64,000 nt of DNA from Bacillota bacterium (GTDB taxonomy: Bacteria > Bacillota > DTU025), in contig JBMNJT010000004.1 in the NCBI GenBank assembly GCA_050951805.1, forward strand, positions 106,120 through 170,119. Direction: 5' to 3'. The notes under the pieces were generated by a model, which was not told the origin of the DNA, made no database searches, and saw only the letters and a program-made list of their open reading frames with translations. Positions 3,628 to 41,662 of the stretch are shown here, piece after piece; within the stretch, counting starts at the first letter, position 1; each line of letters begins with the position of its first letter. Made by a program: the position numbers and the translations under genes.

Positions 3628-4119
3628 TTGACTAGCAGATTAGCAGTAGGTTTGGGGATTTTTCTCACAATTATGATAGTATCAGCGGCTGTCTGCGGCG
3701 CGGTTCCACAGTCTGTGACTCACAATATCACAATATGTGTTCCAGCCGTGGACGTTGTTCGGCTGAGTTGCCCCGGCGTTCACGCTACTTTGCAGGCACG
3801 CAATGATAATACAGGATTTGTTCAGCATGTGCTGGAGGCGGGCGACCTCAGGTGGATAACAAACGATTCTCCAAGGGAGGTAACGGTGAATGCGCAATGC
3901 ATTCCAAATGGTCTCACACTTGAGGTGCTCAAATCGCTCAGCCCTGCCAATAAGTGGCTGGAGCTTGGTGCGTCCCATGTGCTTCTGATAGATGATGCAT
4001 CATGCCATCCAGGCACGAGCCTGCCCAGGGAATTCTCAATCTTCTATAGGATCCTGGCTACGTTGGAGGTCCGTCCTGATACCTACGAGATTGTTGTCAT
4101 TTATACGTTGACAGTTTAG
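3628..4119 (+). CDS. Small secreted/membrane-anchored beta-rich protein (paralog 1), TTG start
   Basis: AGGAGG RBS at 3613-3618 followed by TTG 3628. The N-terminal signal/TM is LAVGLGIFLTIMIVSAAV. The C-terminus (...TYEIVVIYTLTV) resembles the C-terminus of the next gene (...DHDVTVTYTITD). Confidence 0.5.
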   Translation: MTSRLAVGLGIFLTIMIVSAAVCGAVPQSVTHNITICVPAVDVVRLSCPGVHATLQARNDNTGFVQHVLEAGDLRWITNDSPREVTVNAQCIPNGLTLEVLKSLSPANKWLELGASHVLLIDDASCHPGTSLPREFSIFYRILATLEVRPDTYEIVVIYTLTV

Positions 4120-4262
4120 GCACACTTGACAATCCCACGGCAACGAGGGCGTGAGCCAGCCCGGTTACATACTGGCTAGAGGCTTAGGAGATTGAAGTGA
4201 GCGGGGTGGCCAACTGCGAACTTCAAATTGAGAATAGTCAAGAATGGGAGGTCTTTTGTCAA

Positions 4263-4742
4263 ATGTCCAGACGGAAAGTAATGTGGTCGGTCCTTCTCTT
4301 GGTGCTTCTGGGGTTCTCGGCGATTTCGTTCGCGGCGGATAGCGCCTCGCACACCGTTACGATCGTGGTTCCGGAAATCGACAAGATCTGGGCGGACGCT
4401 GGCGGGACGCTACAGCTTGACTGGCTGCCAATTGAAGAGGTCGACGACAACATGGTTGCGTACCCCCATACGCTCCTTCAGGTTTGTCTGATGTACGTCA
4501 CCAATGCCTCTAATAGGAAGATAACGGCTCAGGCAAGTATACCGTTTGCTGGCTTGAGCCTGAGCGTGAAGGGACCAGGAATGGGTTATTGCGAGGAGCT
4601 CGGCGCTGGTTCCGTAACTGTAGTAGATTCCTGCATACCTGGGTCAGTGCAGACAGTGACGCTCACCTATGATGGCAAGGCGGACATTACTGTCCCGGCA
4701 GGCGATCACGACGTCACCGTGACCTATACAATTACTGACTAA
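4263..4742 (+). CDS. Small secreted beta-rich protein (paralog 2)
   Basis: GGGAGG RBS 12 nt upstream of ATG 4263. The signal peptide is MWSVLLLVLLGFSAISFAAD. It shares the TVTIVVP.D and VTYTIT motifs with 3628..4119. Confidence 0.55.
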   Translation: MSRRKVMWSVLLLVLLGFSAISFAADSASHTVTIVVPEIDKIWADAGGTLQLDWLPIEEVDDNMVAYPHTLLQVCLMYVTNASNRKITAQASIPFAGLSLSVKGPGMGYCEELGAGSVTVVDSCIPGSVQTVTLTYDGKADITVPAGDHDVTVTYTITD

Positions 4743-4886
4743 CAGGCTAGATCACTTGGCTTTAAGATGTATGGGAGAGGCTGGGGGGTTCTTCCTCGGC
4801 CTTTCCCATCGGCAGCCCTGTGCGGGTACTGGCTGAAGAGGGAGGATGTCTCTGTGCACGGTTGAAGCGAAGGGAGCGATGTTGTC

Positions 4887-5747
4887 ATGATATATCCAAA
4901 TCGCAGATGTGTTGCAGGTGCCACTACTTTGGCTCTGGCTGTTCTGCTTTGTGTGATGATGCCACCTAGCGCCCATGCCTCGGTAAACGTGCTGAGTGGC
5001 CTCACTCAAATGCATGAGGTTGCTCTAGGCGGGGAGTATAGCGGGGTCATAGTACTGGAAAATCTGGGCGATGTGGTCGAGAGGGTGGAGCTTTATCAAA
5101 CAGATTACCGGTTTACTGCAGAAGGCTACACATATTATGAAGAGCCTGGCACTGTTCGACGCTCCAATGCAGCTTGGATTCGCCTGGGACAGTCTGTTGT
5201 AGAGATTCCGCCCAAATGCAGAATTAGCATCCCCTACAGAATCCTGATACCCAACGACACCGGACTCGTCGGCACTTACTGGAGTATGGTGATGGCAGAG
5301 ATGCTGGGCAGTGTAGACGAGGTCGACATTGACGAGCCTTACAAGAAGGACGAGAATGCGATTGTCCTAGGAGTGAAACAGAAGTTTAGATACGGCATCC
5401 AGATAGTAACCAATATCGGCGTTACGGGCAAGAAAAAAGTAGTCTTCAGCAACCCGGCACTCAGACGCATCGAATCTTCCGGCGCCCTTACATTGAGCGT
5501 AGACCTGGCCAACGCTGGCGAACGGTTGGTCAACCCGTCTGTATGGGTTGAGGTATACGACAAGACCGGAACGAAGATAGGACGGCTTGAGGGCAAGAAT
5601 GCCAAGATATACCCTGACACGTCCGTTCGGGCAACGGTCGAGCTCGGCGCGCTCGAGCCCGGAAGCTACAGGGTGATTATAGTGGCCGACAACCATGACG
5701 AGTACGTGGCGGCTGTTCGGTACAGCCTGGAGGTGCCGGTACCTTGA
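4887..5747 (+). CDS. Secreted protein of unknown function (signal peptide; beta-rich)
   Basis: ORF with N-terminal signal peptide (TLALAVLLCVMMPPSAHA). No recognisable catalytic motif. Confidence 0.5.
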   Translation: MIYPNRRCVAGATTLALAVLLCVMMPPSAHASVNVLSGLTQMHEVALGGEYSGVIVLENLGDVVERVELYQTDYRFTAEGYTYYEEPGTVRRSNAAWIRLGQSVVEIPPKCRISIPYRILIPNDTGLVGTYWSMVMAEMLGSVDEVDIDEPYKKDENAIVLGVKQKFRYGIQIVTNIGVTGKKKVVFSNPALRRIESSGALTLSVDLANAGERLVNPSVWVEVYDKTGTKIGRLEGKNAKIYPDTSVRATVELGALEPGSYRVIIVADNHDEYVAAVRYSLEVPVP

Positions 5748-5777
5748 CTCGGTGTGAGGAGAGCCAGCCTACTTCCG

Positions 5778-8420
5778 ATGATTGCTGTTGCACTCTCCGC
5801 CGTCTGCGCTTTTGGGGCATTCGCTGAAGAGTCGGAGCGCGTTGTCGATTCATCCTGTCAACAGATTGATTCAGGCAGATCCGGGCAGTGTTGTTACCAT
5901 TGTGGTGGCGATTGAGAACCACAGTGCGGAGGCGGTAGATGTTGACCTCGGTTCGGAACTGCCTCAGTCGTGGTTTGCGTTCTTCGGAGACGAAACGGTC
6001 AGGCTGGCGCCGGGCGAAACCGAAATTCTGCCCATAGCGGCAATGATTCCCAAGAATGCGCCTGGCCGGAAGCTACGAAGTCCTCGTCCATGCGAGGTAC
6101 ACATGTCCGCGCATGAACGATCGTCAATCCTCAGAAATCCGGTTCACTGTGTTGGTAAACGAAGTCAGGAGTATCAGAGTTACACTTGTCAATGCGCCGG
6201 ATTACGTTGTGGACACTGCTTACACAGCATCATTTCTCCTGAGCAACCATGGCAATGTCGTGGAGGACTTGAAGCTCTCGACCTGCGATATTCAGGGGGC
6301 GTACATCAAACTCGACCCTGCCTGGGTCAGCTTGGAGCCGGGCGGGAGCACTCCGATAGATGTGCATGTAATCTTGACTGCCGCTCCTGGAAGGGTCCTC
6401 GATCATACAGTACTTGTCAAAGCGGGAAACCGGGATTTGCTGTCGAACTGGGCGTCGGCCAGCGCTCGGGTGAAGGTGCTTCCGCAGAAGCTGAGCGATT
6501 CCGATGCCTACCACCATTTCCCCCTCAAGATCCAGCTGAGCGCAGGTGTGCTTGGGACATCTAATCGGGCGCAGCTCAAAGTGGCCGGGGCAGGCCCGCT
6601 TGCTCACGGGGGCAATGACAGACTACGCTTTGATCTATCAGATACGGGAGGGGTTGTCGAATACAGTGCTCCTGGAATGCGTCTGATATTAGGTGACGGC
6701 AGGTTCGGCCTGTCCCCGCTGACCGAATGGCAGGCCAAGGCGCGAGGCATAGGCGTGCAAATCAGTCAGGAAAGGGCGGGACTCGAGCTCTATACTCACG
6801 ATGGCGCTGGCTCTCCTAGGGTGGGGCTTAGGGCTGCCGCGACTTCTAGCAACGGGTCTTCGCTTTCCCTTCAGCTTTTGACACAAGTAGAGCCCGCGAC
6901 GAACATTCTCACAGTAAAAGGTGTGCACAGGATACCTGGCGTCGAAATCGATTGTGAGTATGGAATGCTGGCTAATGGGTCGAGTTCTGGCGCACAAGCG
7001 CTGCGTGCAAGCGGCAGGTCAAAACTTGGCCCGGTTGAGGCAGTTGTGACCGTTCAGAATGCGGATCGTGGCTACACCGCAATAGACAATCCCGGGATTG
7101 ACATGTCGTTGAAACTCAAAAGTCTCTCAAAGCTGCCCGTATCAGGCACCCTTCTGCTGCAAAAGCATGATGATGGGGAATTGCATAGCCGCAAATTGGA
7201 AGCTAATGCCGTATGGAAGTTGGATTCGACTGAACTAGGATTGAAATACTCCGATACGGCGAAATGGGACGACGGTTCGGATGATCTCGGCAGGTCTAGA
7301 CAGGCCTCAGTCTCTCTCAACGTCTTCGATAGCAGCAATGCCTCTCTCAAGGAGGAGATTTCTGTGCAGAACTGCTCCGGCATGTTGGGAAACCCCGGAA
7401 GTTGGACCGTGGCATATGCTCTCAAGAAGCAGTTGACTGAAAGCAGGTGGAAGTGGACCTCCTGCCTGAGTGCGAGTATGCCGTTGAGCCAAGGCGCTTC
7501 GGTACAGTGTTGGCTTGGGTGCAGACGCTTCATATCAAGTTGTGCCCGGGCTGGAGATGAGGGGCGGTTTTCGCGCAGGCACAATGGGGCAGAGCGGCTT
7601 GACTGTGTCTGCAGGAGCGACGTACAAGCCATCTGATTGGGCGGCCCTATCGATCGATGCATCCTGCAAGATAGTGGACGGCGGGGTGCGTGACTTGGGA
7701 GTGAAGGTTGGCCAGACAGCCTTCTTCGATATTCCCCTAGCCCGCCGCTCAGACGTGGGGGAGATATCGGGAAAGGTTGTGGGCGTGGACGGTAAGGGTA
7801 TGCCGGGTATCATAGTGAACGCGGGAGGGTTTTCGACCGTAACGGATTCATCCGGCACTTTCAGATTCCCTGCAGTGGTCGAAGGCGAGCAGTATGTATC
7901 GGTTAGCGTGCGTGAACTGGGCCCCGAGTATCTAGTGATGCCCTCGTCCGCCGTCAGTGTGAAGGTGGAACGGAACACCGAATCCACAGTGCAATTGACT
8001 GTTGCCAGGTCGGGAAGGATCGAAGGTATTGTCAGATTCTCTTCTGACGAGGGAAGCCGTGCAGTGCCTGATGAAATGATATGGCGTATTGCAGATGGTA
8101 TATCGACTCAAAGTGCGCCCAAGCTGCTGTCAGGGCTGCTGGTGGAAGTATCCGGAGCTAGGCGGTACGTGGTTCCGCTTGATTTCGAGGGCCGGTTTGC
8201 TATCGACCATCTCCCCCCAGGGGACTACAGGGTAACTATAGATCGGAGCTCTGTGCCTTCCCTTTACGAGCTGACTCCGTCAGCGATGAACATAACATTG
8301 GGCGAAGGTGAAAAGGCATCGGCTGAATTTGCTATCTACCAGGTACTTCGGGAATATGATTTCACTGAAGGTGGTGAGATTGGACACGAGCTAATAGTAG
8401 AGGGACAGCAAGAAAGGTAG
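5778..8420 (+). pseudogene. Large cell-surface protein (NEW3/CARDB-like repeats, CarboxypepD_reg-like domain) split by at least three frameshifts
   Basis: A signal peptide (MIAVALSAVCAFGAFA) at 5778 is followed by ORFs 5782..6564, 6056..7636 and 7515..8420 in three different frames, overlapping end to end. Repeated V.V.N.G and P.GET motifs are typical of surface adhesin/S-layer repeats. The segment GKVVGVDGKGMPGIIVNAGGFSTVTDSSGTFRF matches a carboxypeptidase-regulatory-like fold. Confidence 0.5.
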
Positions 8421-14336: not shown

Positions 14337-16457
14337 TCAGGCCAGCCCAAAAAGGCGACCCACTTGATAGATTATGACTGCAAGCGTCCACCCGAGCACG
14401 AGAGTATATGCCACGGCGAAAGCCGTCCATCGCCGAGAACCTGTCTCCCTGCGTATGGCCGCAATCGTGGCTGTGCACGGTATGTATGTGAGGGCCATAA
14501 CCATGAATGAATAGGCCGCGAGCGGGGTCCAGCTGGCTCTGATCGCAGCGATGAGTCCCGCTTCCCCTGTTGTGCCGTAGAGGACTCCCAGGGTGCCGAC
14601 GATGAGCTCCTTGGCTATCACCCCAAAGAGCAAGGCCGCTGCTGCTTGCCATTGGCCGAAGCCTGCGGGGGCAAGAATGGGAGCTATTGCCTTTCCAATT
14701 CTCCCTATCAGCGAATCCGGGCTGCCGGGATCGACGCCTGGCGGCAGATTGGACAATGCCCATACCAGGACGACTGAGAGCAGGATGACTGTGCCTGCCT
14801 TCTCCAGGAATTCCTTTCCCCTTTCCCACGTCTGAATCAGGACCCCGGATATTCTCGGCATGCGATACGGCGGCAGTTCAAGGACGAATGTGGCCTCGTC
14901 ATCCGGTTCCACAAATAGGCTCAATACCTTGGCAACGATGAAAGCTAGCACAACTCCGAGGGCGTACAAGGAGAAGACAACCAGTCCGCGGCGGCTTTCG
15001 AAGAAAGCTGTGGCGAACAGTACGTACACAGGTAGACGCGCTGCGCAGGATATTAGAGGGTTAATCAATATGGATATAAGGCGGTCGCGCTTGCTGTCCA
15101 GGCTTCTGGTGGCCAGAATGCCCGTGACGTTGCATCCGAACCCGAGGATCATCGGGATGAAGGCTTTCCCGTGAAGCCCGACTGACCGCATCAGCCTGTC
15201 TGATAGCACTGCAGCCCTTGCCATGTAGCCCACGTCTTCAAGAAGTGAGATCATCAAAAAAAGCATGAATATTGGCGGTGCGAACTCCAATACGGCCCCT
15301 AGTCCCCCGACTACGCCTTCTACGAGCAAGCCAATAACGATATTGGGTGTTCCCGCCGCTTCCAGAGAACCTGCAAGCCAGGTGCCGAATGTTGCAAATA
15401 AGCCGCTGAGTGCGTCTGCAATTGGCTCGCTGAGGGTAAATGTTATCTGAAACATTAGCCATACTACGACGAAGAATATGGGATATGCGAGCCACGGATG
15501 GAGCACGAACTTGTCGATACGCTGCGTAGGAGTGATCTCGGCGTCATCTGGGCGTGAGACTATGACGGACGCGGAGATGCTTGCCGCAAGTTCGTAGCGC
15601 TTTTCGGCAATCAAGTCCACAGCTTCACGGCCTGCTGCCTTCTTTACGCGCGCGCAGGCCTCCTCTGCTGCGACTTCGAGTTCGGCAATTAGCTTTCCAT
15701 AGGCCGTGTTGGCCTGTTCATTCGCTGAATTCCTGATTTCCTGCAAAATGTCGGCGTCTTTTTCAAGCAGCTTTATGGCCAGCCACCGCGCAGATCGTCT
15801 ACGGCAGAGATCCGGGACGCCGGCAAGTGCCTGCTCGAGCAGGGCAATTTCCTTCTCCAAAATGGGGCCGTAGTCTATCCAGTATGAAGGCGTTCCGGCA
15901 TCGGCGGGTTTTTCTACATCTTCGAGGCCTTCAGCCCCGGCGACCGCATTGGCAGTCTTGAGGGCGAGATCGACTAGTTCCTCGACTCCTCTTCCATGAA
16001 CGGCAGCTGTGGGCACGACCCCGACTCCGAGGTGGTTCGACAGCTCATCTATGTCTATATCGAGGCCGAGCTCTTCAGCCTCGTCTATCATGTTCAGTGC
16101 CACAATGGTGGGCACGCCCATCTCCAGCATCTGAAGGGTTAGGTAGAGGTTTCTTTCGAGATTCGTAGCGTCAACGACGTTTATTGCCACGTCTGGGTGC
16201 TCGTGCATGATGAAGTTACGGGCAATTACCTCATCCAGCGCTCGCGAGCTGAAAGCGTAAGTACCCGGCAGGTCCACGACTAATGCTGAGGTGTCGCCTC
16301 TTGTCAATGTGCCCTCTTTTCGCTCTACTGTGACTCCGGGCCAATTGCCCACGTGTTGTCTTGACCCTGTCATTGCATTGAAAAGGGCTGTCTTCCCTGA
16401 GTTGGGGTTGCCCGCAATTGCTATGACAGGCCTAGAGTGTGCACTTGAATGGTTCAT
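14337..16457 (-). CDS. feoB: Ferrous iron transporter FeoB (N-terminal GTPase plus polytopic membrane domain)
   Basis: G1 motif GNPNSGKT, G-domain motifs, then a long hydrophobic permease region. 706 aa is typical of FeoB. Confidence 0.9.
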   Translation of the reverse strand: MNHSSAHSRPVIAIAGNPNSGKTALFNAMTGSRQHVGNWPGVTVERKEGTLTRGDTSALVVDLPGTYAFSSRALDEVIARNFIMHEHPDVAINVVDATNLERNLYLTLQMLEMGVPTIVALNMIDEAEELGLDIDIDELSNHLGVGVVPTAAVHGRGVEELVDLALKTANAVAGAEGLEDVEKPADAGTPSYWIDYGPILEKEIALLEQALAGVPDLCRRRSARWLAIKLLEKDADILQEIRNSANEQANTAYGKLIAELEVAAEEACARVKKAAGREAVDLIAEKRYELAASISASVIVSRPDDAEITPTQRIDKFVLHPWLAYPIFFVVVWLMFQITFTLSEPIADALSGLFATFGTWLAGSLEAAGTPNIVIGLLVEGVVGGLGAVLEFAPPIFMLFLMISLLEDVGYMARAAVLSDRLMRSVGLHGKAFIPMILGFGCNVTGILATRSLDSKRDRLISILINPLISCAARLPVYVLFATAFFESRRGLVVFSLYALGVVLAFIVAKVLSLFVEPDDEATFVLELPPYRMPRISGVLIQTWERGKEFLEKAGTVILLSVVLVWALSNLPPGVDPGSPDSLIGRIGKAIAPILAPAGFGQWQAAAALLFGVIAKELIVGTLGVLYGTTGEAGLIAAIRASWTPLAAYSFMVMALTYIPCTATIAAIRRETGSRRWTAFAVAYTLVLGWTLAVIIYQVGRLFGLA

Positions 16458-16584: not shown

Positions 16585-16977
16585 CTATTCAGTGCAATCT
16601 GCTTTCCTGTGTTGATGGCGCCCGCTTTCCCGCAGGCATTTATCGCCTGAGGCCGCCACCTGTCCATGTCTGTGGCGTCGACGGAACGGCCCGTGATTTT
16701 CCAGCTTGCATGCTTCCGAGCAGGGCCTGTCAGCACACGGTATGACGGATATGCCTGCCGCTTCGCCTCTTCGCAGACCGAGGCGGCAGCCGCGGGCACA
16801 CACTATCAGGGGATCTCCGAAGGGCGCTGTCCCTTCTATGCAGACTTCTGTTCCAGGGGTCAAGCCCATATCCATCAACCGTCTCCTGAGTGGTCCCTCA
16901 CAATCTATGCTCAGGATTGTTCCCCGATCGCCCGGATTGAGTTGGCTGAGGGATATTGCTCCGTTAGCATCGCTCAT
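16585..16977 (-). CDS. feoA: FeoA-domain protein with an unusual Arg/His-rich C-terminal tail of about 50 aa
   Basis: The SH3-like FeoA core (LSQLNPGDRGTILSI ... GLTPGTEVCIEGTAPFGDPLIVCARGCRLGLRRGEAAGISV) is clear. The extra tail could be genuine or a read-through caused by a frameshift. Confidence 0.6.
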   Translation of the reverse strand: MSDANGAISLSQLNPGDRGTILSIDCEGPLRRRLMDMGLTPGTEVCIEGTAPFGDPLIVCARGCRLGLRRGEAAGISVIPCADRPCSEACKLENHGPFRRRHRHGQVAASGDKCLRESGRHQHRKADCTE

Positions 16978-17363
16978 TCCGCGTCTCTCCTCTCCATGAA
17001 TTCAACTAGTCCGTTCATTGTGTCTTTGCTGACTACATGCTCTATCTGGCACGCATCTTCTTCTGCTATGTGTTCGGCCACGCCTAGCACCGATACGAGA
17101 AAGGCTTTGATGGTGTGGTGGCGCCTGGACACGGCTCGAGCCTGTTCGTCCCCGGAGTCTGTGAGAAAGACTGGACCGTACTTTTCGCGCTCAATTAGGC
17201 CGCGATCGACCAAAAGCCCCATTGCCTGATTGACGCTGGCTTTCGATACGCCGAGCTTATCAGCTATATCGGTGGTACGGGCAGCACCGCTTTCGTCCGC
17301 CACTTCCAGCACGGCTTCGAGGTAATCTTCGAGCGACGGCGATATTGGCGTTGAGTTCTTCAC
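16974..17363 (-). CDS. DtxR/MntR-family metal-dependent transcriptional repressor
   Basis: The N-terminal HTH (TTDIADKLGVSKASVNQAMGLLVDRGLIERE) and metal-binding helix are typical of IdeR/DtxR/MntR. Its stop overlaps the feoA start by 4 nt, so this is a dtxR-feoA-feoB operon. Confidence 0.8.
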   Translation of the reverse strand: MKNSTPISPSLEDYLEAVLEVADESGAARTTDIADKLGVSKASVNQAMGLLVDRGLIEREKYGPVFLTDSGDEQARAVSRRHHTIKAFLVSVLGVAEHIAEEDACQIEHVVSKDTMNGLVEFMERRDAE

Positions 17364-17915
17364 TTCTTTCTCCCACCTTCATACTGAGGCGGCCGATCTG
17401 GATCAGCCGAAAGCTAAGTAAGGCATGACTAACTTGCCCTGATAAGAATCTATGCCATTTTTCAGGAGATGTCAAGAGCTTTCTGACGCGTATTGACATG
17501 TACGTGCCGTAGCGGGAAAATAATTATGGACATATGACCAATATGCAACGATATAATCTACCCGTCTCGACTGGCCTTTATCAACTCTATCCAGGTGCGA
17601 TACGTCCTGGGACGGGAAGGCAGTTTGAAGGACTCATGTGCGTTCAGTGCAGGTTAGCCATAGTCAATTGCGTGCTCAGGGGATGGGTGTAGATGGGATG
17701 AGAGGGCACCTGGTTGTCTCTTTGCAAGTTGCAGTTGAGCCTGGGGCTTTCCTTTGTAGCCTTAAAACATCGCCTTGGGCGACTATATCGCACGCGGGCC
17801 CTAACCCTAAGGAACGTGAATTTCAGGATCCCGCAATATTCGATTGTAAGCGGCTCAGATTGCTGTTGCGCCGATTGAAGAAAACTTGAAAGATCTCTGA
17901 CTAGGAGCTGATATT

Positions 17916-18404
17916 ATGCCGAGGCCTCCAAAATGCAGAAGAGTCGAGTTCATGCCCGAAGTGACTGTCTTCAAGCCTGCTGGCGTTCGATTGGCGGAGA
18001 TGGAAGAGGAGATCCTCCTCCTGGAAGAACTGGAGGCTCTGCGCCTCAAGGATGTTGAAGGGCTAGAGCAAGAGGAGTGCGCCGATAGGATGCAAGTGTC
18101 CCGGCCTACATTCCAGAGGGTGCTCTCTTCAGCCAGGGAGAAGGTGGCCCGGGCGCTGGTCGAAGGTAAGGCTATCCGGATCGAAGGCGGAACCTACCGT
18201 CTTGCTGCGCGGAAGCTGCGGTGCGAGGATTGCAGTTATGAGTTCGAGGCACCCGTTGCCATGTATCGCCAAGGCGCCGGAGCGGCTTGCCCTAGGTGCG
18301 GTGCGCGTCATGGGCGACGTAACGACGGGGACCAGACAGCAGGCGGCATGATGCACCACGGGCGCTGTGGCAGGGGGTGGAGGAATACCGAAGGCGACGA
18401 ATAG
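17916..18404 (+). CDS. DUF134/UPF0251-family predicted DNA-binding protein (sigma-70 region-4-like HTH) with a C-terminal CxxC...CxxC zinc ribbon
   Basis: MPRPPKCRRV ... LEALRLKDVEGLEQEECADRMQVSRPTFQRVL is characteristic of DUF134. CEDC...CPRCG forms the zinc ribbon. Confidence 0.7.
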   Translation: MPRPPKCRRVEFMPEVTVFKPAGVRLAEMEEEILLLEELEALRLKDVEGLEQEECADRMQVSRPTFQRVLSSAREKVARALVEGKAIRIEGGTYRLAARKLRCEDCSYEFEAPVAMYRQGAGAACPRCGARHGRRNDGDQTAGGMMHHGRCGRGWRNTEGDE

Positions 18405-18527
18405 AGGTTAAAGCTTCAAGGTGCATCCAAAGCGGCCACATGCCAGGCAACTGACCTTTACACCTTGCCAAAAACCTTTGCTTGTTTCGCCGGGGCCAAA
18501 TGAGGCAACCAGAGTATACGGGGGGCG

Positions 18528-19502
18528 TTGAGTTTGAAATACATCTTTGGTCCAGTTCCCTCAAGACGGCTGTGCCGTTCGTTGGGGGTCGACTTGATTC
18601 CGTACAAGCATTGTTCCTTCGACTGCATCTATTGCCAGCTCGGCGCGACCGTCCACAAGAGGGCGGAGCGCCAGCAATTCGTCGAGACAGGCGAGGTCAT
18701 CGCCGAGCTCGAGTCGGCTTTGCCCTGTGTGGAAGCCGACTACGTCACTTTGTCGGGGTCGGGCGAACCCACCCTATGCTTGGGGATAGGGGAGCTGATC
18801 GAGGGGATAAAGGAATTGACAGAGATTCCTGTGGCGGTTCTGACCAATAGCTCGCTCATGTCATGTGCTGAGGTCCGAAAAGAGCTCCTTGGCGCGGACC
18901 TTGTGATTCCTTCTGTTGATGCCGCAACGCAAGACGTTTTTGAAAGGATAAACCGCCCATGCTCCGGATTGAGAATCGAGGACATCCTCTGCGGCTTGGA
19001 GGAGTTCTCGTATGAGTACTCGGGGAAGCTTTGGATAGAAGTGATGATGGTCAGGGACATAAACGACAGTGATGATGAAATCGACAAGATAGCCTCTGCC
19101 CTAACACGCATAAGGTGTGAAAAGATCCAGCTCAATACGGTGGAAAGGCCTCCCGCCGAATCCTTTGCCCGCGCACTGACACAGGGGGCGCTGGAAAAAG
19201 CGAGAAGACGGTTTGACGATCGGGCGGAGTTGATCGTGGCGTCCGGGATTTATCAGGACGCTGATGGGTCTTTTCATAGCCCAGCCGGGGCCGGGCTGGG
19301 GGCGCCCGGGATCGAAGCGGACTGTGGGCGGGTGCTTGAGCTCCTCAAGAGACGGCCGTGCACCGTCAGGGACATAGCCGAAGGGCTCGATCTCAACATC
19401 AATGAGGCCGCTAAGTTTGTGGGGATTCTCAAGGGAGAAGGACTTATCTGCGCCATCCGCCGAGAAGGACGGGCCTATTTCTTCGCCAACGATGGAAACT
19501 GA
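18528..19502 (+). CDS. Radical SAM protein (COG0731-like) with a C-terminal winged-helix domain; TTG start
   Basis: The CSFDCIYC motif (CxxxCxxC) follows FGPVPSRRLCRSLGVDL. The C-terminus ...VGILKGEGLICAIRREGRAYFF is wHTH-like. Confidence 0.75.
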   Translation: MSLKYIFGPVPSRRLCRSLGVDLIPYKHCSFDCIYCQLGATVHKRAERQQFVETGEVIAELESALPCVEADYVTLSGSGEPTLCLGIGELIEGIKELTEIPVAVLTNSSLMSCAEVRKELLGADLVIPSVDAATQDVFERINRPCSGLRIEDILCGLEEFSYEYSGKLWIEVMMVRDINDSDDEIDKIASALTRIRCEKIQLNTVERPPAESFARALTQGALEKARRRFDDRAELIVASGIYQDADGSFHSPAGAGLGAPGIEADCGRVLELLKRRPCTVRDIAEGLDLNINEAAKFVGILKGEGLICAIRREGRAYFFANDGN

Positions 19503-19714
19503 ACCATTGCGGGCACATTTCTGCGCTCAGATTATTGACATATGCTCATAACCACGGGTATACTGATAATGAACATATGCCCATAACCCTACAACAGCAA
19601 TTGATGGCGTCAAGCCAAGCACGTATTCAATCCAACCGGAGGATGGGCATATGAAAAAGCCGTGGAGGTAGTCGTTCGATCAAACCCCAAGGCTTTGGAG
19701 AGGAGGTGCTTTAC

Positions 19715-20125
19715 ATGCCGAGAGGAGATGGAAGAGGACCAACTGGTTTCGGTCCTATGACAGGCAGGGGCGCAGGCTTCTGCACCGGATATGATGTTCC
19801 TGGATATGCTAATCCCGCAATGGGCAGGGGGCCGGGATTTGGACGCGCTCCGCGCTGTTATGGGGGAGGCGGATTCGGACGAGGGTACAGAAGGATGTAC
19901 TACGCGACGGGACTGCCGAGATGGATGCGTTCTGGAGCAGGGGCATGGGGTCAGGCCGCGTACGGGCCTGCTTACAGCCCTTACGCCCAAGAGGCCATGA
20001 GGCCGTCGAAAGAACAGGAGATAGGCTATCTAAAACGACAGTCAGAGTTTCTCATGGAGGAGCTCGAGGCCGTCCGGGGGCGTCTGAGCGAGCTTTCTGG
20101 TTCCCAAGAGTACGATGAAGGCTAG
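19715..20125 (+). CDS. DUF5320-family Gly/Arg-rich protein with a C-terminal coiled coil
   Basis: AGGAGGTG RBS 6 nt upstream of ATG. The sequence MPRGDGRGPTGFGPMTGRGAGFCTGY is the DUF5320 signature, which commonly neighbours NifX-like genes in anaerobes. Confidence 0.65.
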   Translation: MPRGDGRGPTGFGPMTGRGAGFCTGYDVPGYANPAMGRGPGFGRAPRCYGGGGFGRGYRRMYYATGLPRWMRSGAGAWGQAAYGPAYSPYAQEAMRPSKEQEIGYLKRQSEFLMEELEAVRGRLSELSGSQEYDEG

Positions 20126-20249
20126 TCCTTCGAGGCGAAGGGGTGAGAGAGGTCGGATTTGAGCGTCCTTCGGCTCCTTCGCCGGCCAGCAATCGACCTG
20201 TACCGAGGATAGTGGACAAAGTTGCCGGAGGTTAAGGGGAGATGGTAGT

Positions 20250-20636
20250 TTGAAGCTAGCAGTAACGGCGCAGGGAACCAGCCTCTCAGCCGGGTTGGAC
20301 CCGCGTTTCGGCAGGTGCGAACATTTTGTGATCATAGACGTCGATACCGAGGAATTCGAAGCATTCTCCAACGAGAGCGTTATGGCGTCAGGCGGAGCGG
20401 GAACTGAAAGCGCCCAGTTTCTTGCTGACAAGGGCGCAGAGGCGGTCGTTACCGGAAATGTTGGTCCCAATGCAGCGATGGCTCTGGAAGCCGCGGGCAT
20501 AAAGGTCTACAGAATGTCTTCCGGGACAGTGAAGGACGCTTTGGAGGCTTTTAAGTCAGGGACGCTCGAGGCAATTTCCGGACCTACAGTCAATTCCCAT
20601 CATGGAATGGGCGGGCATGGCCGCGGGGGTCGCTAG
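20250..20636 (+). CDS. Dinitrogenase FeMo-cofactor-binding-domain protein (NifX/NafY-like, PF02579) 1
   Basis: MKLAVTAQG ... GRCEHFVIIDVD ... GAEAVVTGNVGPNAAMALEAAGIKVY matches the NifX/NifB-C-terminal fold. Confidence 0.75.
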   Translation: MKLAVTAQGTSLSAGLDPRFGRCEHFVIIDVDTEEFEAFSNESVMASGGAGTESAQFLADKGAEAVVTGNVGPNAAMALEAAGIKVYRMSSGTVKDALEAFKSGTLEAISGPTVNSHHGMGGHGRGGR

Positions 20637-20749
20637 GCTCAAGGGCTGGGCCAGCTGGCAAGTGGGGCAGACCCCGTCGGCGCAAACGGAGCTTCCCACG
20701 ATAGGATCGAGCAGAATTGGTCTTTTCACATTTAAGGGGGTAACCATAG

Positions 20750-21157
20750 ATGAAGATTGCTGTGGCAACTGACGGTTCCACCGTCTCGCCTCATTTCGGG
20801 CATTGCTCTGAATTCACCATAGTCACAGTGGAAAACGGCAAGGCCGTCGATTCGGCCATTCTTCCAAACCCCGAGCATCAACCCGATTTTCTCCCTCAGT
20901 ACCTTTCTGAACACGGAGTTTCATGCATCATCGCAGGCGGAATGGGTCCAAGGGCCCAGCAACACTTTGCTGCTAGGGGCATTAAGACCGTGATAGGAGC
21001 GTCCGGGAGTGTGGACGATGTCGTCCACGCGTATCTTGCGGGATCTCTTGAGGTGGGCGAGAGCGCTTGCGATCACGGCCACGGACATGAGCAGCACGGT
21101 GAATGCGGACACGGGGAAAACGGGGGAACCCATAGGCGCGGCTGCGGCCACAACTAG
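20750..21157 (+). CDS. NifX/NafY-like FeMo-cofactor-binding-domain protein 2 with a His/Gly-rich tail
   Basis: MKIAVATDGSTVSPHFGHCSEFTIVTV ... VSCIIAGGMGPRAQQHFAARGIKTV, followed by HGHGHEQHGECGHG. Confidence 0.75.
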   Translation: MKIAVATDGSTVSPHFGHCSEFTIVTVENGKAVDSAILPNPEHQPDFLPQYLSEHGVSCIIAGGMGPRAQQHFAARGIKTVIGASGSVDDVVHAYLAGSLEVGESACDHGHGHEQHGECGHGENGGTHRRGCGHN

Positions 21158-21228
21158 CGGGGGATTGGCGGGCAGGCCCGTTAGAGCCTGCCTGTTTTTG
21201 GAAGGACAAAATACGCGAAGTTGGGGCA

Positions 21229-22154
21229 TGCACGATGAATGGTGGCGATGGAATGTGATTGTTTCAATAGCGAGCGGCAAAGGAGGAACGGGCAAGACTA
21301 CTGTCGCGGTCAACTTGGCGTTGGCCTTGGAGGGGGCTATGCCGATACGCTTTTTGGACTGCGATGTTGAGGAGCCCAATGCCCATCTTTTCCTCCATCC
21401 CGAAATCGAGCGCTCCGAAAAAGTAAGTTTGCCAGTTCCGGTTGTGGACGAGAGCAAGTGTAACGGATGCGGAAAATGCGCCCGGGTGTGCGCTTTCCAT
21501 GCGATCCTTGCCTTCAGCTCCCGGACGATCGTCCTGCCCGAGCTCTGTCATGGATGCGGGGGGTGTGCGCTTCTTTGCCCGCAGGGGGCGATAACGGAGA
21601 GCCCGAAGGTGATCGGGGAAGTGGAGACGGGGCGCGCAGGAGATATCAGGTTTGCCCATGGACGGACAGGGATCGGAAGCCCTCTGGCACCGCCTGTGGT
21701 GAAAGCGGTGAGGGAGGCGTTGGACAAGGAAGGCCTAGGGGCCGGGTTGACGATCATAGACGCGCCCCCCGGGACGTCCTGTCCGGTTGTGGCTTCGATC
21801 AAGGGCAGCGATTACTGCGTGCTGGTGACGGAGCCTACGCCCTTCGGCCTCAACGATCTTGGGCTGGCCGTTGGACTGGTTCGGGAGCTAGGCATACCCT
21901 GCGGCGTAGTGATTAACAGGGCCGGGTTGGGGGATGAGGCCGTTTCAGCCTATTGCAGCCGCGAGGGCATCCCTGTGTTGCTTGAAATACCATACGACAG
22001 GAAGTACGCCGAATGCTACGCTAAGGGCGGAAGGCTTGTGGATGACTTTCCAGAGCTCCGAGGCGCTTTGAAGGGGTTGTGGCGCAAGATCAGTGCGAGC
22101 GGCGAATCTGGCGCAGAGGGAGAGGATGGGCGAAGGGAGATGGGTGAGATATGA
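21229..22154 (+). CDS. MinD/ParA-superfamily P-loop ATPase with an inserted 2x[4Fe-4S] ferredoxin domain (COG1149-like) 1; start uncertain (ATG 21229 or GTG 21254)
   Basis: Deviant Walker A SGKGGTGKTT, then CNGCGKCARVC and CHGCGGCALLCP cysteine clusters. Confidence 0.75.
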
Positions 22155-23074
22155 AGGAGTTGCTCGTGATAAGCGGCAAGGGAGGCACCGGCAAGACGAG
22201 TGTAGTTGCGTCATTTGCGGCTTTGGCGGAGAACAAAGTCTTAGTCGACTGCGATGTGGATGCTGCCGACCTTCACCTCTTGCTTTCGCCAGAGGTAGTT
22301 GAATCCCATGAATTCATGGCTTCGCGACAGGCAACTGTCGATGTGAGCCGATGCACGGGGTGCGGTCATTGCAGCGAAGTGTGCCGCTTCGGCGCTATAG
22401 CCATGGCCTATGGGCATCCAACCATCGATCCGATTTCCTGTGAAGGGTGTACTGTGTGCTCCCATATTTGTCCCGAGGGTGCTATAACCATGGTCGACGT
22501 CATGTCAGGGCACTGGTACGTATCCCATACCCGGTTTGGGCCGATGGTCCATGCCAAGCTCAAGGCGGCTGAAGAGAACTCAGGGAAGCTCGTATCCCAA
22601 GTGAGGCGCAAGGCGCGGGAGATAGCCGAAAGCCAGGGGCACGAGTTGATCATTACCGACGGGCCGCCTGGGGTGGGATGCCCCGTCATATCCTCCATCT
22701 CCGGAGTGGATCTTGCCTTGATCGTAACGGAACCCACGGTGGCGGGGGTCCACGACATGGAGCGGGTCCTCGACCTTACGTGCCATTTCGGTGTAGAGTC
22801 GGCGGTATGTATCAACAAGTGCGATCTTGATGGGGCTAATGCTGAGCGCATAGAGGATTACTGTTGTGCAAGGGGAATCGAGATTGCGGGGAAGATCCCG
22901 TTCGATGAGGATATGGTAAGGGCGGTTGTAAGGGGTGAGCCGCCTGTTCTGTACGGAGATGGTGCTCCTGATTGCGCGGGCCCAGATAGCGTTGCGGGCG
23001 AAGCCGCGCAGGCTATACGCCAGCTTTGGGATAGGGTCGCTGTTCTTCTCGCGCGTGATGCGGGCTCTTTCTAG
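22151..23074 (+). CDS. MinD/ParA-superfamily P-loop ATPase with an inserted 2x[4Fe-4S] ferredoxin domain 2
   Basis: MKELLVISGKGGTGKTS, CTGCGHCSEVC, CEGCTVCSHICP. Its start overlaps the stop of the preceding paralog (ATGA). Confidence 0.8.
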   Translation: MKELLVISGKGGTGKTSVVASFAALAENKVLVDCDVDAADLHLLLSPEVVESHEFMASRQATVDVSRCTGCGHCSEVCRFGAIAMAYGHPTIDPISCEGCTVCSHICPEGAITMVDVMSGHWYVSHTRFGPMVHAKLKAAEENSGKLVSQVRRKAREIAESQGHELIITDGPPGVGCPVISSISGVDLALIVTEPTVAGVHDMERVLDLTCHFGVESAVCINKCDLDGANAERIEDYCCARGIEIAGKIPFDEDMVRAVVRGEPPVLYGDGAPDCAGPDSVAGEAAQAIRQLWDRVAVLLARDAGSF

Positions 23075-23084
23075 GAGCGGAGGC

Positions 23085-23669
23085 TTACCCGAACAGTGAA
23101 AAAAGGTAGCTGAGGATGGCTCCAACAACGGCGCCGACCACGTATTCCATGACCTTGCTTTGCCAGCTGCGCTCCTTGGCGAGGGCTGCGTCGAGCTCCT
23201 CGATCATCCTCGATTGCTCTGCTATGGCTCTTGAGAGAACCTCAATCTGGTTCGGCTGGTCTGCCAGGGCCTGCACGAGCACGCGCGAGATATCGCTTGC
23301 AGTCATGGGTTCGACAGAAGACCCGACTTGAGCATACGCGCTGCTGTCGGCGAGGACGAGACTGTCGGCTTCCTCGACAGTTATCACAGCGACGTCTTTT
23401 CCTTCAACATTTACGATTTCGAAAGAAGTTCGGGGCTTAGGCTCCAGTTTTTCGAGGGCGTCTACATACAGTCTTCGCGCCTTTTTGATGTCGGTGCCTA
23501 TGATTTCGCCTGACTCTTCTATGCCAACGAGGATCGTGCCGCCAGACGTGTTGGACAGGGCACCTATCAGCCTCGACAGGTCCTTAGGCTTCTTGGGCTT
23601 AGCTCTGAATTCAACCTTTTCATTCTGCCCCTGGGCGATGAGATCGCAAATCTTTTGAGACTTTGTCAC
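23085..23669 (-). CDS. AlbA_2 (Schlafen-like / divergent-AAA) putative DNA-binding domain protein with a C-terminal transmembrane helix
   Basis: The N-terminal region (E..KVEFRAKPKKPKDLSRLIGALSNTSGGTILVGIEESGEIIG) matches the AlbA_2 signature. The C-terminus VVGAVVGAILSYLFSLFG is hydrophobic. Confidence 0.55.
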   Translation of the reverse strand: MTKSQKICDLIAQGQNEKVEFRAKPKKPKDLSRLIGALSNTSGGTILVGIEESGEIIGTDIKKARRLYVDALEKLEPKPRTSFEIVNVEGKDVAVITVEEADSLVLADSSAYAQVGSSVEPMTASDISRVLVQALADQPNQIEVLSRAIAEQSRMIEELDAALAKERSWQSKVMEYVVGAVVGAILSYLFSLFG

Positions 23670-24852
23670 ATTAATGGCCCCCTAAGCAGCACATTGCGCC
23701 AATACCATTTCCAGTTCTGCCGTGAGCTTACTCAATTTCCAGTAAGAATGCAAGCAGTTGATTCCTGCCCCAAAGTTTGCCAGCCGCATACCGTTGGAGC
23801 GGGGCAAGGTCAACCATCTTGTCGGCCTGTCCGTATGATCCCGGCGGCACGATCATCTTCTCCCCCGGACGCCAATCTGCCGGGGTGGCCACTTTCTGCC
23901 CGTCAGAAGTGTGCACGGCGATGAGCAGGCGCTTGATCTCGTCGAGGGTAGGCCTATGTCACCCGCTGACGGCTGAATCATCCCTCACTTCTTTGCCACC
24001 TCCATCTTCAGATCGACAGATGAGCGGGAACTTGATTTTCTCTTTGATGGTTCTTGGCCAAGCGATGTGGCTGAAGAGTATGCCCACTTGTTCTCGTAGT
24101 CATTGGCGAAAGAGACTGTGCCACGGCTTCGAAGCTCGGGGCCTTCTCTTTGATAAGCGGAATCCGCACGGTCTCTTCACAACAAGTTGAATTGGCGGTT
24201 TCTCTCATATCTGCTTTTCACACAGTCTGCACACGCCACGCCATTATACATGGATTGCGTGGCGCGGCCGATCTCTTCAATGGTTGTTATCAATCCCATG
24301 TCGTCAAGAATCCACAAGGTTCGATAGACTGTAGTTCTCGTGGACGTGGTGATATATGGTTTCCGCGTCGGTGCGGTCACTCGACTCTGCTAATTCCTCA
24401 CAAGAATCACTAATATGTCTGGGGTGTCAATGGTTGCCTCCATTCTTATTGTCCCATCTGCTGTTTGTGGAAAGCACAATTGAAGAAGCTTGCTCGACTT
24501 CATGCATGCTGGTTTAGCTGCCTGATCCCGAATCGAACTCGGAAAGGTTAGAGGATTCCAGAGCTAACCTTTTTGCAATGCAGATGCTCCTCAGCCATCT
24601 CCTATTAGAACCTGAGGCGGGTATGAGACCCCTTCCATCGCGGTGATGTTCAAACTGAATCTGCTATGGCTATTGCCAGTTGGCGCCTTAATCTCAGACC
24701 GATGCAGATATGGAGGATTATGGTGATATACCTCGAAATACACGTTCATGGTCCTGGGCTTGGGCGCACAACAAAGTGCAGAGGCACCCGAGTCCATGAA
24801 CACGAATCTTAACCTTTGGGGTTAATATACGATTTGACTTGGGGGACGTAAT

Positions 24853-25097
24853 TTGCGTATAATGTTCAGGGATGAAGACCTCCAATTGGCATGCACAGAT
24901 CCTGATGTTGGCAGACGTAGATGGGGAGAATCTTGTGCAAAGGTGATCAGGCGAAGACTTGATCAGCTTCGGGCTGCAGAAACACTTGAAGACATGAGGA
25001 ATCTGTGGAATGTCCGCTGCCGCGGAAACCGGATGGAGGTTTGGACTGGACGAAAGTGAAGGAAATTGTCGTAATTGGGGTGGTGGACTACCATTGA
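24853..25097 (+). pseudogene. Decayed HigB-family (RelE/ParE superfamily, COG3549-type) toxin gene with an internal deletion and frameshift
   Basis: Frame 1 gives MRIMFRDEDL ... AKVIRRRLDQLRAAETLEDMRNL ... RGNRMEVWTGRK and then stops. A different frame (25014..25097) gives ...KEIVVIGVVDYH*, matching the canonical HigB C-terminus (...DYH). The central SIRIN..WRI segment is missing. Confidence 0.55.
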
Positions 25098-25114
25098 CTG
25101 AGAAGGGCATAGGA

Positions 25115-26203
25115 ATGTACGAGTACGTGCCAGATGTGGTATCACCGCCTGGTTCCACGCTGCTGGAGACGATTGAGGCGTTGGGGATGACTCAAGCAGA
25201 ATTGGCACGGCGAATGGGCCGTCCGGTAAAGACGATAAATGAGATTATCAATGGGAAAACCGCAATAACTCCGAAGACGGCCTTGCAGCTTGAACGCGTT
25301 TTAGGCATTCCTGCACATTTCTGGAGAAATCGTGAGGAGCAGTATCAGCAGTATCTTTTGGCCCAAAGGGACGAAAAAGAGCTGGCTGAGTATAGCTATT
25401 GGCTGGAGGAGATACCGTTCAGGTATCTTGTGACAAGTGGCTGGGTAAAGGATGGCGCGAATGATGCCGAACGAGTCAGGCTTGGCTTGGAGTATTTCGG
25501 AGTAGCGTCAGTCGATGCATGGCGCTCGACATGGGGTTCGCCGACCGCAGTTTATCGCCGGTCGCCGGTTTTTGAGGCCAAACCCGGAGCGGTGGCCGCA
25601 TGGCTGCGGAAGGGTGAGATAGAAGCAAGGACAATAGAGTGCAGCCCTTACAGGAAGAAGGCGTTTGCTTCGGCTCTTCAGGATATTCGTATTCTCACAG
25701 TGGAGCAGCCAGAGGTTTTCATTCCGAAAATGCAATCCTTGTGTGCCCAAACTGGTGTGGCAGTAGTTTTCGTGCCTGAAGTGCCCGAAAGCCGCGCATC
25801 GGGTGCTGCTCGATGGTTGAACAGACAGAAGGCCCTTATTCAGCTGAGCTTTCGCTACAAGACCGACGATCAACTTTGGTTTACATTTTTCCATGAAGCA
25901 GCCCACGTACTGGGCGGCTACCAGAGCAGTGCATTCATTGACAATTTCGAACCCAACGATCTCGCATCAGAAGTAGAGCTTGAGGCGGATCGCTTCGCTG
26001 CCGACATCCTCATGCCGCCGACTGAGTATCGCAAGTTTACCGAAGGCATTCAGGGAGGGCGAATAAGTCGGAACAAGGTTTCAGCATTTGCCAAGTCAAT
26101 CGGCGTGGCCCCGGGAATTGTTGTCGGACGTCTGCAACATGATGGGCTACTGCCGTACACTCATCTTAACGGGCTCAAAGTGCGTCTGAAATGGCCTACA
26201 TGA
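25115..26203 (+). CDS. HigA-like XRE-family HTH antitoxin fused to an ImmA/IrrE (COG2856) zinc metallopeptidase domain
   Basis: The N-terminal HTH (GMTQAELARRMGRPVKTINEIINGKTAITPKTALQLERVLG) is followed by a peptidase domain with the HExxH motif (FFHEAAHVL). Confidence 0.7.
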   Translation: MYEYVPDVVSPPGSTLLETIEALGMTQAELARRMGRPVKTINEIINGKTAITPKTALQLERVLGIPAHFWRNREEQYQQYLLAQRDEKELAEYSYWLEEIPFRYLVTSGWVKDGANDAERVRLGLEYFGVASVDAWRSTWGSPTAVYRRSPVFEAKPGAVAAWLRKGEIEARTIECSPYRKKAFASALQDIRILTVEQPEVFIPKMQSLCAQTGVAVVFVPEVPESRASGAARWLNRQKALIQLSFRYKTDDQLWFTFFHEAAHVLGGYQSSAFIDNFEPNDLASEVELEADRFAADILMPPTEYRKFTEGIQGGRISRNKVSAFAKSIGVAPGIVVGRLQHDGLLPYTHLNGLKVRLKWPT

Positions 26204-41645: not shown

Positions 41646-41662
41646 GATTGAAAACCCAACCT

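Follow-up and report, generated by a model that had tools for sequence, protein, structure and literature searches.

The DNA analysed here, 64,000 nucleotides of contig JBMNJT010000004.1 from a Bacillota bacterium (the whole stretch is called the window below, and positions are counted from its first letter), carries at 17916-23074 seven co-oriented genes on the + strand, all of which are present as open reading frames (ORFs) with Pfam matches. An original prediction, made from the sequence alone, had named the same seven families, and the ORFs and Pfam agree with it once the start codons of two genes (g3 and g6) are corrected. The seven genes belong together and form a Bacillota-type variant of the ORP (orange protein) system, an anaerobe-specific multi-protein iron-sulfur (Fe-S) complex. 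They are as follows:

g1, 17916-18404, +, DUF134 helix-turn-helix (HTH) protein that ends in an FmdB-type zinc ribbon and a tail rich in Gly and Arg
g2, 18528-19502, +, single-cluster radical SAM protein with a C-terminal winged helix (PF0610-like)
g3, 19715-20125, +, DUF5320 protein (Pfam PF17253, 73.3 bits; gathering threshold 27)
g4, 20250-20636, +, Nitro_FeMo-Co protein (PF02579, 92.5 bits), NifX-like, of the ORP/Orp8/MTH1175 type
g5, 20750-21157, +, Nitro_FeMo-Co protein (83.3 bits), second NifX-like subtype
g6, 21229-22154, +, MinD-type ATPase with a 2x[4Fe-4S] insert, paralogue type A (DVEEPN)
g7, 22151-23074, +, MinD-type ATPase with a 2x[4Fe-4S] insert, paralogue type B (DVDAADLH)

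The DUF134 match of g1 (PF02001) reaches 83.6 bits (gathering threshold 27) and is accompanied by a C-terminal Zn_ribbon_8 match of 25.3 bits and a weak match to Sigma70_r4_2 (23 bits). The g2 protein scores 48 bits against Radical_SAM, its CxxxCxxC motif being formed by C29, C33 and C36. The true start of g3 is the ATG at 19715, a GTG at 19706 having been discarded, and that of g6 is either ATG 21229 or GTG 21253; the latter ORF as listed (21009-22154) overlaps g5. Both g6 and g7 match CbiA/ParA-type P-loop families and Fer4 in Pfam, and each carries two complete CxxCxxCxxxCP motifs. The successive spacers from g1 to g6 measure 123, 212, 124, 113 and ~70-95 bp, and g6 and g7 share 4 bp. Three of these spacers (20126-20249, 20637-20749 and 21158-21228) are, at 70-124 bp, atypically long for an operon, and they carry short GC-rich inverted repeats, for example CCTTCGAGGCGAAGG 3' of g3. 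Spacers and repeats might determine different mRNA stabilities or protein ratios along the g3-g6 stretch.

Conservation of the gene neighbourhood had been put forward as the check on this grouping, which was to be given up if the families proved unrelated or the gene order was kept in no relative. The order is clearly conserved: homologues 55-70% identical follow one another in the same order, between different flanks, in four other loci (L005, L007, L008 and L089). The L008 array, for instance, runs DUF134, radical SAM, Fur, DUF5320, NifX, NifX, ferredoxin, ATPase, ATPase, metallo-beta-lactamase (MBL)-fold, NifU_N. Because the order is kept in relatives whose flanks differ, and because the families recur around the ATPase pair in 80 genomes, their clustering is far beyond chance. 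The latter 80 loci come from species-representative genomes and were fetched with an alignment (A1) of ten ATPases. Their bacterial members belong to Clostridia, Dehalococcoidia, Desulfobacterota, Planctomycetota, Aminicenantes, Acidobacteriota, Zixibacteria and Spirochaetes, and their archaeal members to Methanocellaceae, Methanosarcinales, Methanophagales, Bathyarchaeia, Altiarchaeota and Thermoplasmata. Neighbours were counted within 10 kb with hidden Markov models (HMMs) built from the window and its relatives; many of the contigs are truncated, so that the following counts are lower bounds:

second ATPase, 67 of 80 loci
NifX-like, 67 of 80 loci
DUF5320, 40 of 80 loci
Mrp/ParA, 37 of 80 loci
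NifU_N (IscU-like), 27 of 80 loci
DUF134, 20 of 80 loci
radical SAM, 19 of 80 loci
Fur/DtxR/FeoB, 14 of 80 loci
sigma-54 activator, 13 of 80 loci

Both NifX types occur together in 52 of ~88 loci (88 loci plus the window), and a FeoB gene, detected with an HMM seeded by the FeoB of the window, adjoins the ATPase pair in five of the 80 (L009, L022, L054, L059 and L076). An unbiased all-against-all clustering of neighbouring ORFs added MBL-fold proteins (15 loci), a methyltransferase (12), a DnaJ-domain protein (10) and, further, TrmO_N, CGGC, pyridine-nucleotide disulfide oxidoreductase and DUF364 families; in the same clustering no nif, molybdenum or tungsten genes recurred near the ATPase pair. 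An FmdB-type zinc-ribbon protein of ~80 residues with a Cys-rich tail (TCCGRxERCxxPPCSxxGxCRR) is found in 31 ATPase-anchored loci, mostly between the ATPase pair and the NifX-like gene (e.g. L081 1123-1365 and L014 10871-11116). This protein, which the clustering also brought up, may be what the literature describes as the 'small iron-sulfur protein of the ORP operon'. Only its zinc-ribbon part is present in the window, where it is fused to DUF134 in g1.

The orp cluster is said to have been defined by Fievet et al. in 2011. In Desulfovibrio vulgaris, the paralogues Orp3 and Orp4 each have two [4Fe-4S] ferredoxin motifs, Orp5 is of small size, the homologue of ORP is Orp8, and MrpORP is Orp9; Orp3, Orp4 and Orp8 co-purify and bear Fe-S clusters, while a [3Fe-4S] cluster is bound by the Di-Nase domain (Pardoux et al., PMC6345978). 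Against the PDB, g4 matches D. gigas ORP (2wfb, E = 2.9e-20, residues 2-113) and MTH1175 (1eo1, 1.2e-20), as well as TM1290. It carries the RFGRC and GGAG motifs typical of the ORP type, followed by a short Gly/His/Arg tail of ~14 residues. The g5 protein matches 1t3v/1o13 (~5e-17) and is of the TM1816 and PH0822 subtype. Against the NCBIfam model of MrpORP (NF041136) it aligns with positions 265-365, the Di-Nase part, at 105.5 bits against a 450-bit cutoff, and it carries the HFGHC, CDH and Pro-loop motifs of the Di-Nase domain (motifs as given in PMC6345978). Custom HMMs find no Mrp-type ORF in the window, where the Di-Nase part is a free protein. Thus g4-g7 correspond to the ORP core, which makes the cluster a member of a known, functionally unsettled system.

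The window cluster resembles the D. vulgaris system in having a single-domain ORP-type NifX-like protein (g4), adjacent MinD-class ATPase paralogues with two [4Fe-4S] motifs each (g6 and g7, Orp3 and Orp4 (DVU2103 and DVU2104) being compared by their published description), a Di-Nase domain with HFGHC and CDH (g5) and, probably, a small Gly-rich protein (g3), and in being of a type confined to anaerobes. It differs in that the Mrp/NBP35 NTPase domain is missing and the Di-Nase domain stands alone. The genes form one co-oriented array, whereas those of Desulfovibrio form two divergent operons, and the sigma-54 promoter and OrpR activator are replaced by a DUF134 gene and by sigma-70-type promoters that carry a palindromic, operator-like site. 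The radical SAM/winged-helix gene and the adjoining, divergent DtxR-feoAB operon are additional here. The original prediction had called the cluster uncharacterised; this does not hold, since it is of an already described kind, the ORP complex having been purified and found to bear Fe-S clusters, while the function of the ORP system is unsettled in the literature.

The ATPase pair is highly conserved. In alignment A1 the invariant features comprise the deviant Walker A motif SGKGGTGKT, all eight ferredoxin cysteines and one Cys in each switch (DCDV in switch I, D[GA]PPGxxCPV in switch II). A YC motif and an LW helix at the C-terminus are invariant as well. The two paralogues form an ordered pair, type A followed by type B, in 67 of 89 loci. 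The deviant Walker A motif and the layout of switches I and II are shared with Mrp/NBP35/ApbC and with MinD, and Mrp genes are frequent neighbours of the pair in other genomes. Unlike these proteins, g6 and g7 contain a ~75-residue 2x[4Fe-4S] insert after switch I; they have cysteines where MinD has its switch residues (DCDV and GCPV), replacing an Ala and a Lys, they lack the Mrp-type CxxC, and they occur as what looks like an obligate A-B pair. Among solved structures both are closest to MinD, and no solved structure of their own family was found; they score far below the cutoffs of the MinD equivalog models (minD_bact 54.9 bits against 212.9, minD_arch 53.9 against 201.75). The switch II Cys lies seven residues past the Walker B aspartate, at the position of Cys132 of A. 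vinelandii NifH. The sequence of g6 and g7 thus makes it plausible that they hold a NifH-like bridging cluster coupled to ATP hydrolysis.

The radical SAM protein g2 belongs to a large family (>7800 matches). In 32 homologues the only invariant cysteines are C29, C33, C36 and C278, the last of which lies in the winged helix. Its structural model (predicted local distance difference test, pLDDT, 81) gives equally weak Foldseek matches to PFL activase, RlmN-like proteins, NifB, TYW1, viperin and LipA; a sequence search of the PDB gave no match, and all NCBIfam matches are far under their cutoffs. Two specific assignments were rejected. An identity as a NifB-type enzyme finds no match to TIGR01290, no K-cluster ligands and an unspecific fold search, and TYW1, the JGI label on g2 homologues, scores 30 bits against the 318-bit cutoff of TIGR03972. 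The gene usually follows the ATPase genes or lies between them, as it does in 5 of 8 archaeal loci, and in one Desulfobacterota-type contig (L002) it lies inside an OrpR-type cluster; homologues outside such clusters are present in L001 and L004. With 19 of 80 loci, g2 is an optional accessory of the neighbourhood.

DUF5320, the family of g3, is more than mere low complexity. Among 120 homologues the N-terminal motif MPxGDGTGPxGxGPMTGRGAGYCAGY and a second motif, YYATGLPGW, are conserved, and Cys23 is invariant. The N-terminal part consists of 30% Gly, 10% Arg, 11% Pro and 16% aromatic residues, with nearly no Lys, Asp or Glu and an isoelectric point (pI) of ~10, and the last 45 residues are rich in Glu and Lys. 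AlphaFold assigns no structure to residues 1-95 of g3 (pLDDT < 55) and one confident helix to residues 99-127. In eight genome loci DUF5320 is fused C-terminally to an ORP-type NifX domain (PF02579 plus PF17253), among them a NifX-DUF5320-NifX protein (L070) and a fusion that also includes a ferredoxin (L049), and a database search with one fusion protein returned both domains in 118 of the top 120 clusters. By Rosetta-stone reasoning these fusions indicate that g3 works with g4. DUF5320 also lies directly before the ATPase pair in three Desulfobacterota-type loci (L046, L086 and L088). The Orp5 protein DVU2105 is labelled 'Major ampullate spidroin' (PMC4641369 supplement), which suggests a Gly-rich protein, probably of the DUF5320 family; on this inferred mapping g3 is probably the equivalent of Orp5, the alternative candidate being the Cys-rich zinc-ribbon protein described above. 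The Orp5 homologue of D. alaskensis, Dde_3197, is reported to bind [2Fe-2S].

The combination of g3 and g4 recalls IssA of Pyrococcus furiosus (PF2025/Q8TZG9), an iron-sulfur (thioferrate) storage protein with a NifX-like domain and a disordered Pro/Gly/Arg/aromatic tail that holds its only cysteine. Shared features are the IPR003731/NifX-like globular domain of g4, whose best PDB match, MTH1175, was put in the 'IssA clade' by the IssA authors; the disordered Gly/Arg/Pro/aromatic tail with a single cysteine, supplied in trans by g3 and in cis by the fusions of other genomes; and the small number of cysteines overall. Unlike in IssA, the tail is a separate protein with a conserved N-terminal motif and a coiled-coil-type C-terminal helix, and the pI of the whole proteins is acidic to neutral; for IssA no dependence on a MinD-type ATPase pair is known. 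By its published definition (PMC5524996 supplement), the IssA clade has a pI of at least 9, fewer than 5 Cys and a Gly content of at least 20% over the last 40 residues. With 1 Cys and 22% Gly, g4 falls within the last two limits, and with a pI of 5.26 it falls outside the first; the g4 polypeptide has no long cationic Gly/aromatic tail of its own beyond the short one already mentioned. Among 120 fusion proteins the median pI is 6.0, and three have a pI of at least 9.

The cluster is separated by a divergent intergenic region from an operon for iron uptake on the opposite strand:

14337..16457, -, FeoB ferrous iron transporter (706-aa ORF)
16585..16977, -, FeoA-domain protein (Pfam FeoA, 77.5 bits)
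16974..17363, -, DtxR/MntR-family metal-dependent repressor, first gene of the operon

The repressor matches Fe_dep_repr_C (62.6 bits) and Fe_dep_repress (46.4 bits), and scores 108.9 bits against the NCBIfam model of MntR, under the 153-bit cutoff. The region between this operon and g1 (17364-17915) is unusually long (~550 bp) and contains short ORFs of 52-83 aa at 17534-17889. A palindrome with the consensus TTATGAGCATATGCTCATAA is present on both promoter regions of the cluster. The second of these is a strong sigma-70-like promoter, TTGACA-18-TATACT, at 19535-19564 in the 212-bp gap before g3, which is bracketed by two copies of ACATATGCYCATAACC. The sites are:

17526..17541, ATGGACATATGACCAA, 11 of 12 core positions, just after a promoter-like TTGACA-17-GAAAAT element (17493-17521) in the divergent intergenic region
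19534-19549, 11 of 12 core positions, overlapping the -35 element of the 19535-19564 promoter
19569-19584, 12 of 12 core positions, just after the -10 element
19643..19658, a weaker site with 10 of 12 core positions, upstream of g3

A 21-nt stretch from the pair of sites at 19534-19584, TTATTGACATATGCTCATAAC, is identical in L089, while the surrounding spacer diverges. Over 1.25 Mb (88 loci and the window), the count of sites that match 11 or 12 of the 12 core positions is 20 against 0.95 expected, and that of perfect sites is eight against 0.05 expected. Loci with the palindrome tend also to encode DUF134 (odds ratio 10.8, p = 9.5e-5); in the same set there is no correlation with Fur, and palindrome and sigma-54 activator never occur together. 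An independent scan of metagenome contigs, made with the palindrome pattern alone, returned 120 loci. In these the next downstream gene within 250 bp is DUF134 in 75, DUF5320 in five and a NifX-like gene in two; DUF134 is encoded somewhere in 85, and the median distance from the site's centre to the DUF134 start downstream is 27 bp. DUF134 is thus probably an autoregulated repressor that controls the ORP-type cluster through the palindrome, and it fits better as the cluster's regulator than as a component of its machinery. It is fused to a NifX-like domain in L075 and to the FmdB-type zinc ribbon in g1 and several relatives, the ribbon being encoded by a separate gene elsewhere. Nothing relevant to the function of DUF134, UPF0251 or COG1342 was found in the literature.

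That the palindrome is not the operator of DUF134, being instead the site of another regulator or an RNA hairpin of the 5' leader, is doubtful, though it deserves more weight than any of the functional alternatives discussed below. Binding of DUF134 has been deduced from co-occurrence and position; a perfect 20-nt palindrome can pair into a hairpin of 8 bp, the two half-sites sometimes change symmetrically (in L039, for example), and in five of the 16 genome loci that carry the motif no DUF134 gene is seen within 10 kb. However, the left half of the site over the -35 element is changed to TTGACA, which breaks two pairings and fits a role in DNA rather than RNA, and the right half and its flank often read CATAAT or TATAAT, resembling a -10 element. 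The association is moreover specific to DUF134, being absent for Fur and for sigma-54 activators; DUF134 is the adjacent gene in most of the pattern-selected loci, and it has a sigma-70 region 4-like HTH. An identity as a Fur or DtxR box was rejected, since the palindrome fits neither consensus as usually given and does not co-occur with Fur. In L007 and L008, two relatives at 55% identity, a Fur gene lies inside the operon, between the radical SAM and DUF5320 genes, and directly after the same palindrome/-35 element, TTATTGACATATG (L007 ~9013; L008 3486-3501, with Fur at 3566-4033). A sigma-54 promoter at 17711 (TGGTTGTCTCTTTGCA) was also discarded: the pattern TGG-N8-TTGCW occurs 4 times against 6 expected, and a custom HMM finds no sigma-54 activator gene in the window. 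No known RNA or riboswitch lies near the cluster, an Rfam scan of the whole window at gathering thresholds having returned a tRNA at 59686-59758 and nothing else.

Taken together, the locus is read, with a probability of about 0.6, as a variant ORP complex for handling Fe-S or iron sulfide, one that is tied to iron uptake and iron regulators, powered by a redox-active ATPase heterodimer and controlled by DUF134. In the mechanism envisaged, g6 and g7, which have a signature lysine in the deviant Walker A motif, would form an ATP-dependent heterodimer, and their invariant switch I and switch II cysteines could hold a cluster that bridges the two subunits, as in NifH. The pair would couple ATP hydrolysis and low-potential electrons to the loading or unloading of labile iron-sulfide species. 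These would be held by the NifX-like proteins, and the disordered, cationic DUF5320 protein with its invariant Cys may help to bind them. The system would then buffer or store Fe-S units, or pass them to scaffolds and carriers; NifU_N/IscU-like, Mrp and DnaJ genes are neighbours in other genomes. Through the palindrome g1 would repress the two promoters, probably sensing cluster or iron status, the adjoining DtxR-feoAB operon would supply the iron, and g2 would act as an optional accessory.

Several points weigh against this reading. The bridging cluster is proposed from the position of residues in g6 and g7, and the analogy with IssA from architecture and composition, g4 and the fusion proteins falling short of the pI of 9. 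The only palindrome before g1 lies 390 bp upstream of its start. The Mrp NTPase domain, the NifU_N gene and the sigma-54/OrpR control of the Desulfovibrio system are absent from the window cluster. Specialists on ORP call the role of the complex unclear and have favoured a link to cell division, and the ligand of native D. gigas ORP is a Mo-Cu-S cluster rather than Fe-S.

The original prediction pointed to assembly or trafficking of an unknown metallocluster or cofactor in a neighbourhood devoid of nitrogenase structural genes. The latter observation stands, as no nitrogenase genes were found in the 64-kb window with Pfam on 37 larger ORFs and custom family HMMs on all ORFs. As to the former, handling of metal and sulfur is the best-supported direction, and an unknown nitrogenase-like cofactor is less favoured than Fe-S or iron sulfide. 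The evidence favours such ordinary handling because IscU-like, Mrp, DnaJ, Fur, DtxR and Feo genes recur, and because the radical SAM protein lacks auxiliary-cluster cysteines and occurs in about a quarter of the loci. Biosynthesis of a new complex metallocluster, in which the radical SAM enzyme would act as NifB, the NifX-like proteins as carriers and the ATPases as a NifH-like reductase or insertase, is improbable. The set of domains does parallel NifB, NifX, NafY and NifH: the NifX-like fold and a radical SAM gene share one neighbourhood, and g6 and g7 are P-loop ATPases of the dimeric MinD/NifH class with a Cys at the NifH Cys132 position. Three NifB structures (7bi7, 6y1x and 7jmb) are among the top matches of the g2 model (~6e-8), and D. 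gigas ORP does bind an unusual Mo-Cu-S cluster. Unlike in nitrogenase maturation, however, there are no nifHDKEN genes, g2 is not fused to a NifX domain and has no auxiliary-cluster ligands, and g6 and g7, unlike NifH, carry an inserted ferredoxin domain. The radical SAM gene is seen in only 19 of 80 loci, its family has no NifB-type K-cluster ligands and is not matched by the nifB model, and its fold fits PFL activase, RlmN, TYW1 and viperin equally well. No candidate target enzyme and no Mo or W genes recur; the neighbours are general Fe-S scaffolds and carriers and iron regulators, and a NifH-like P-loop protein is present in one of 88 loci.

Two further alternatives are very unlikely, the second marginally more so than the first. 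A redox-regulated, MinD-like positioning or cell-division system is the role first proposed for the D. vulgaris ORP complex, and it is in keeping with the proximity of g6 and g7 to MinD among solved structures and with their conserved C-terminal (A/F)xxLWxx(V/I) helix. The literature describes morphological defects on loss of orp expression, a polar location of MrpORP and a C-terminal amphipathic helix in Orp3 and Orp4. Yet the recurrent neighbours are all related to metals or Fe-S and include no division genes, the system is also present in diverse archaea, and the invariant ferredoxin insert and switch cysteines point to redox or cluster chemistry; the altered morphology could be an indirect effect of a faulty Fe-S supply. 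The other alternative is the handling or detoxification of Mo, W or Cu sulfides, in which the NifX-like proteins would sequester the thiomolybdate-copper species of sulfidic cells. Native D. gigas ORP, a homologue of g4, holds [S2MoS2CuS2MoS2]3- non-covalently, and the orp genes of D. alaskensis respond to copper surfaces (PMC10533852). However, Mod, Tup, Moa, Moe and copper-efflux genes are not among the recurrent neighbours, and the linked regulators and transporters (DtxR, Fur and FeoAB) are those of iron. The expression of D. alaskensis Dde_3197-3199 likewise shifts together with feoA and flavodoxin, an iron signature (PMC10533852).

Little is understood of how strict anaerobes store iron and sulfide and distribute them to their many Fe-S enzymes. 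The ORP core belongs to a far wider and very widespread set of genes, of which the locus in the window is an ordinary member; the neighbourhood spans Bacillota and Chloroflexota to methanogen-related archaea. The locus offers testable assignments for three families: DUF5320 as the partner, or in-cis tail, of an ORP-type domain, DUF134 as a regulator with a 20-bp predicted operator, and the ATPases with their switch cysteines. Should the Fe-S buffering model be true, it would matter for sulfate reducers, dehalogenators, syntrophs and methane-cycling archaea. More speculatively, the extended ORP neighbourhood may be the anaerobes' counterpart of ferritin and its loading machinery. The NifX-like and DUF5320 proteins would nucleate or hold a thioferrate-like store, perhaps as a particle or condensate, the NifH-like ATPase pair would load or mobilise it, and DUF134 would represent a new family of store-sensing transcription factors. 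This larger proposal is a tentative one and is considered unlikely in its full form.

The G+C content of 18000-24000 (0.57-0.58) is slightly above that of the flanks (0.50-0.53), which, together with the dissimilar flanks of L089 and the window, fits a module that is mobile between genomes. Directly downstream of the cluster lies a Schlafen/AlbA_2-domain gene (23085-23669, -), which is also found 3' of the cluster in a 99%-identical contig (L090), though not in that position in L089; it is followed at 25010-26203 (+) by a gene for an HTH_3 protein with an IrrE/ImmA-type metallopeptidase domain. At 2153-7636 there are + strand ORFs of 178, 254, 181, 286 and 526 aa with no Pfam match at E <= 1e-5, and after this run a protein with carboxypeptidase-regulatory-like domains (7515-8420). 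Two adjacent large ORFs of 409 and 578 aa at 40404-43576 (-), whose only matches are to HTH_29/HTH_28 winged helices, may be transposase-like genes. A methionine/homocysteine block occupies 43710-48271 (+) and comprises MTHFR, a cobalamin-dependent MetH-like methionine synthase (832 aa) and the COG1900-type homocysteine biosynthesis enzyme HcyBio (521 bits), which is typical of anaerobes that build homocysteine from sulfide. Finally, 51379-62605 is dense in signalling genes, with a PAS/HD-GYP protein, two methyl-accepting chemotaxis proteins and two HAMP-GGDEF-HD-GYP proteins.

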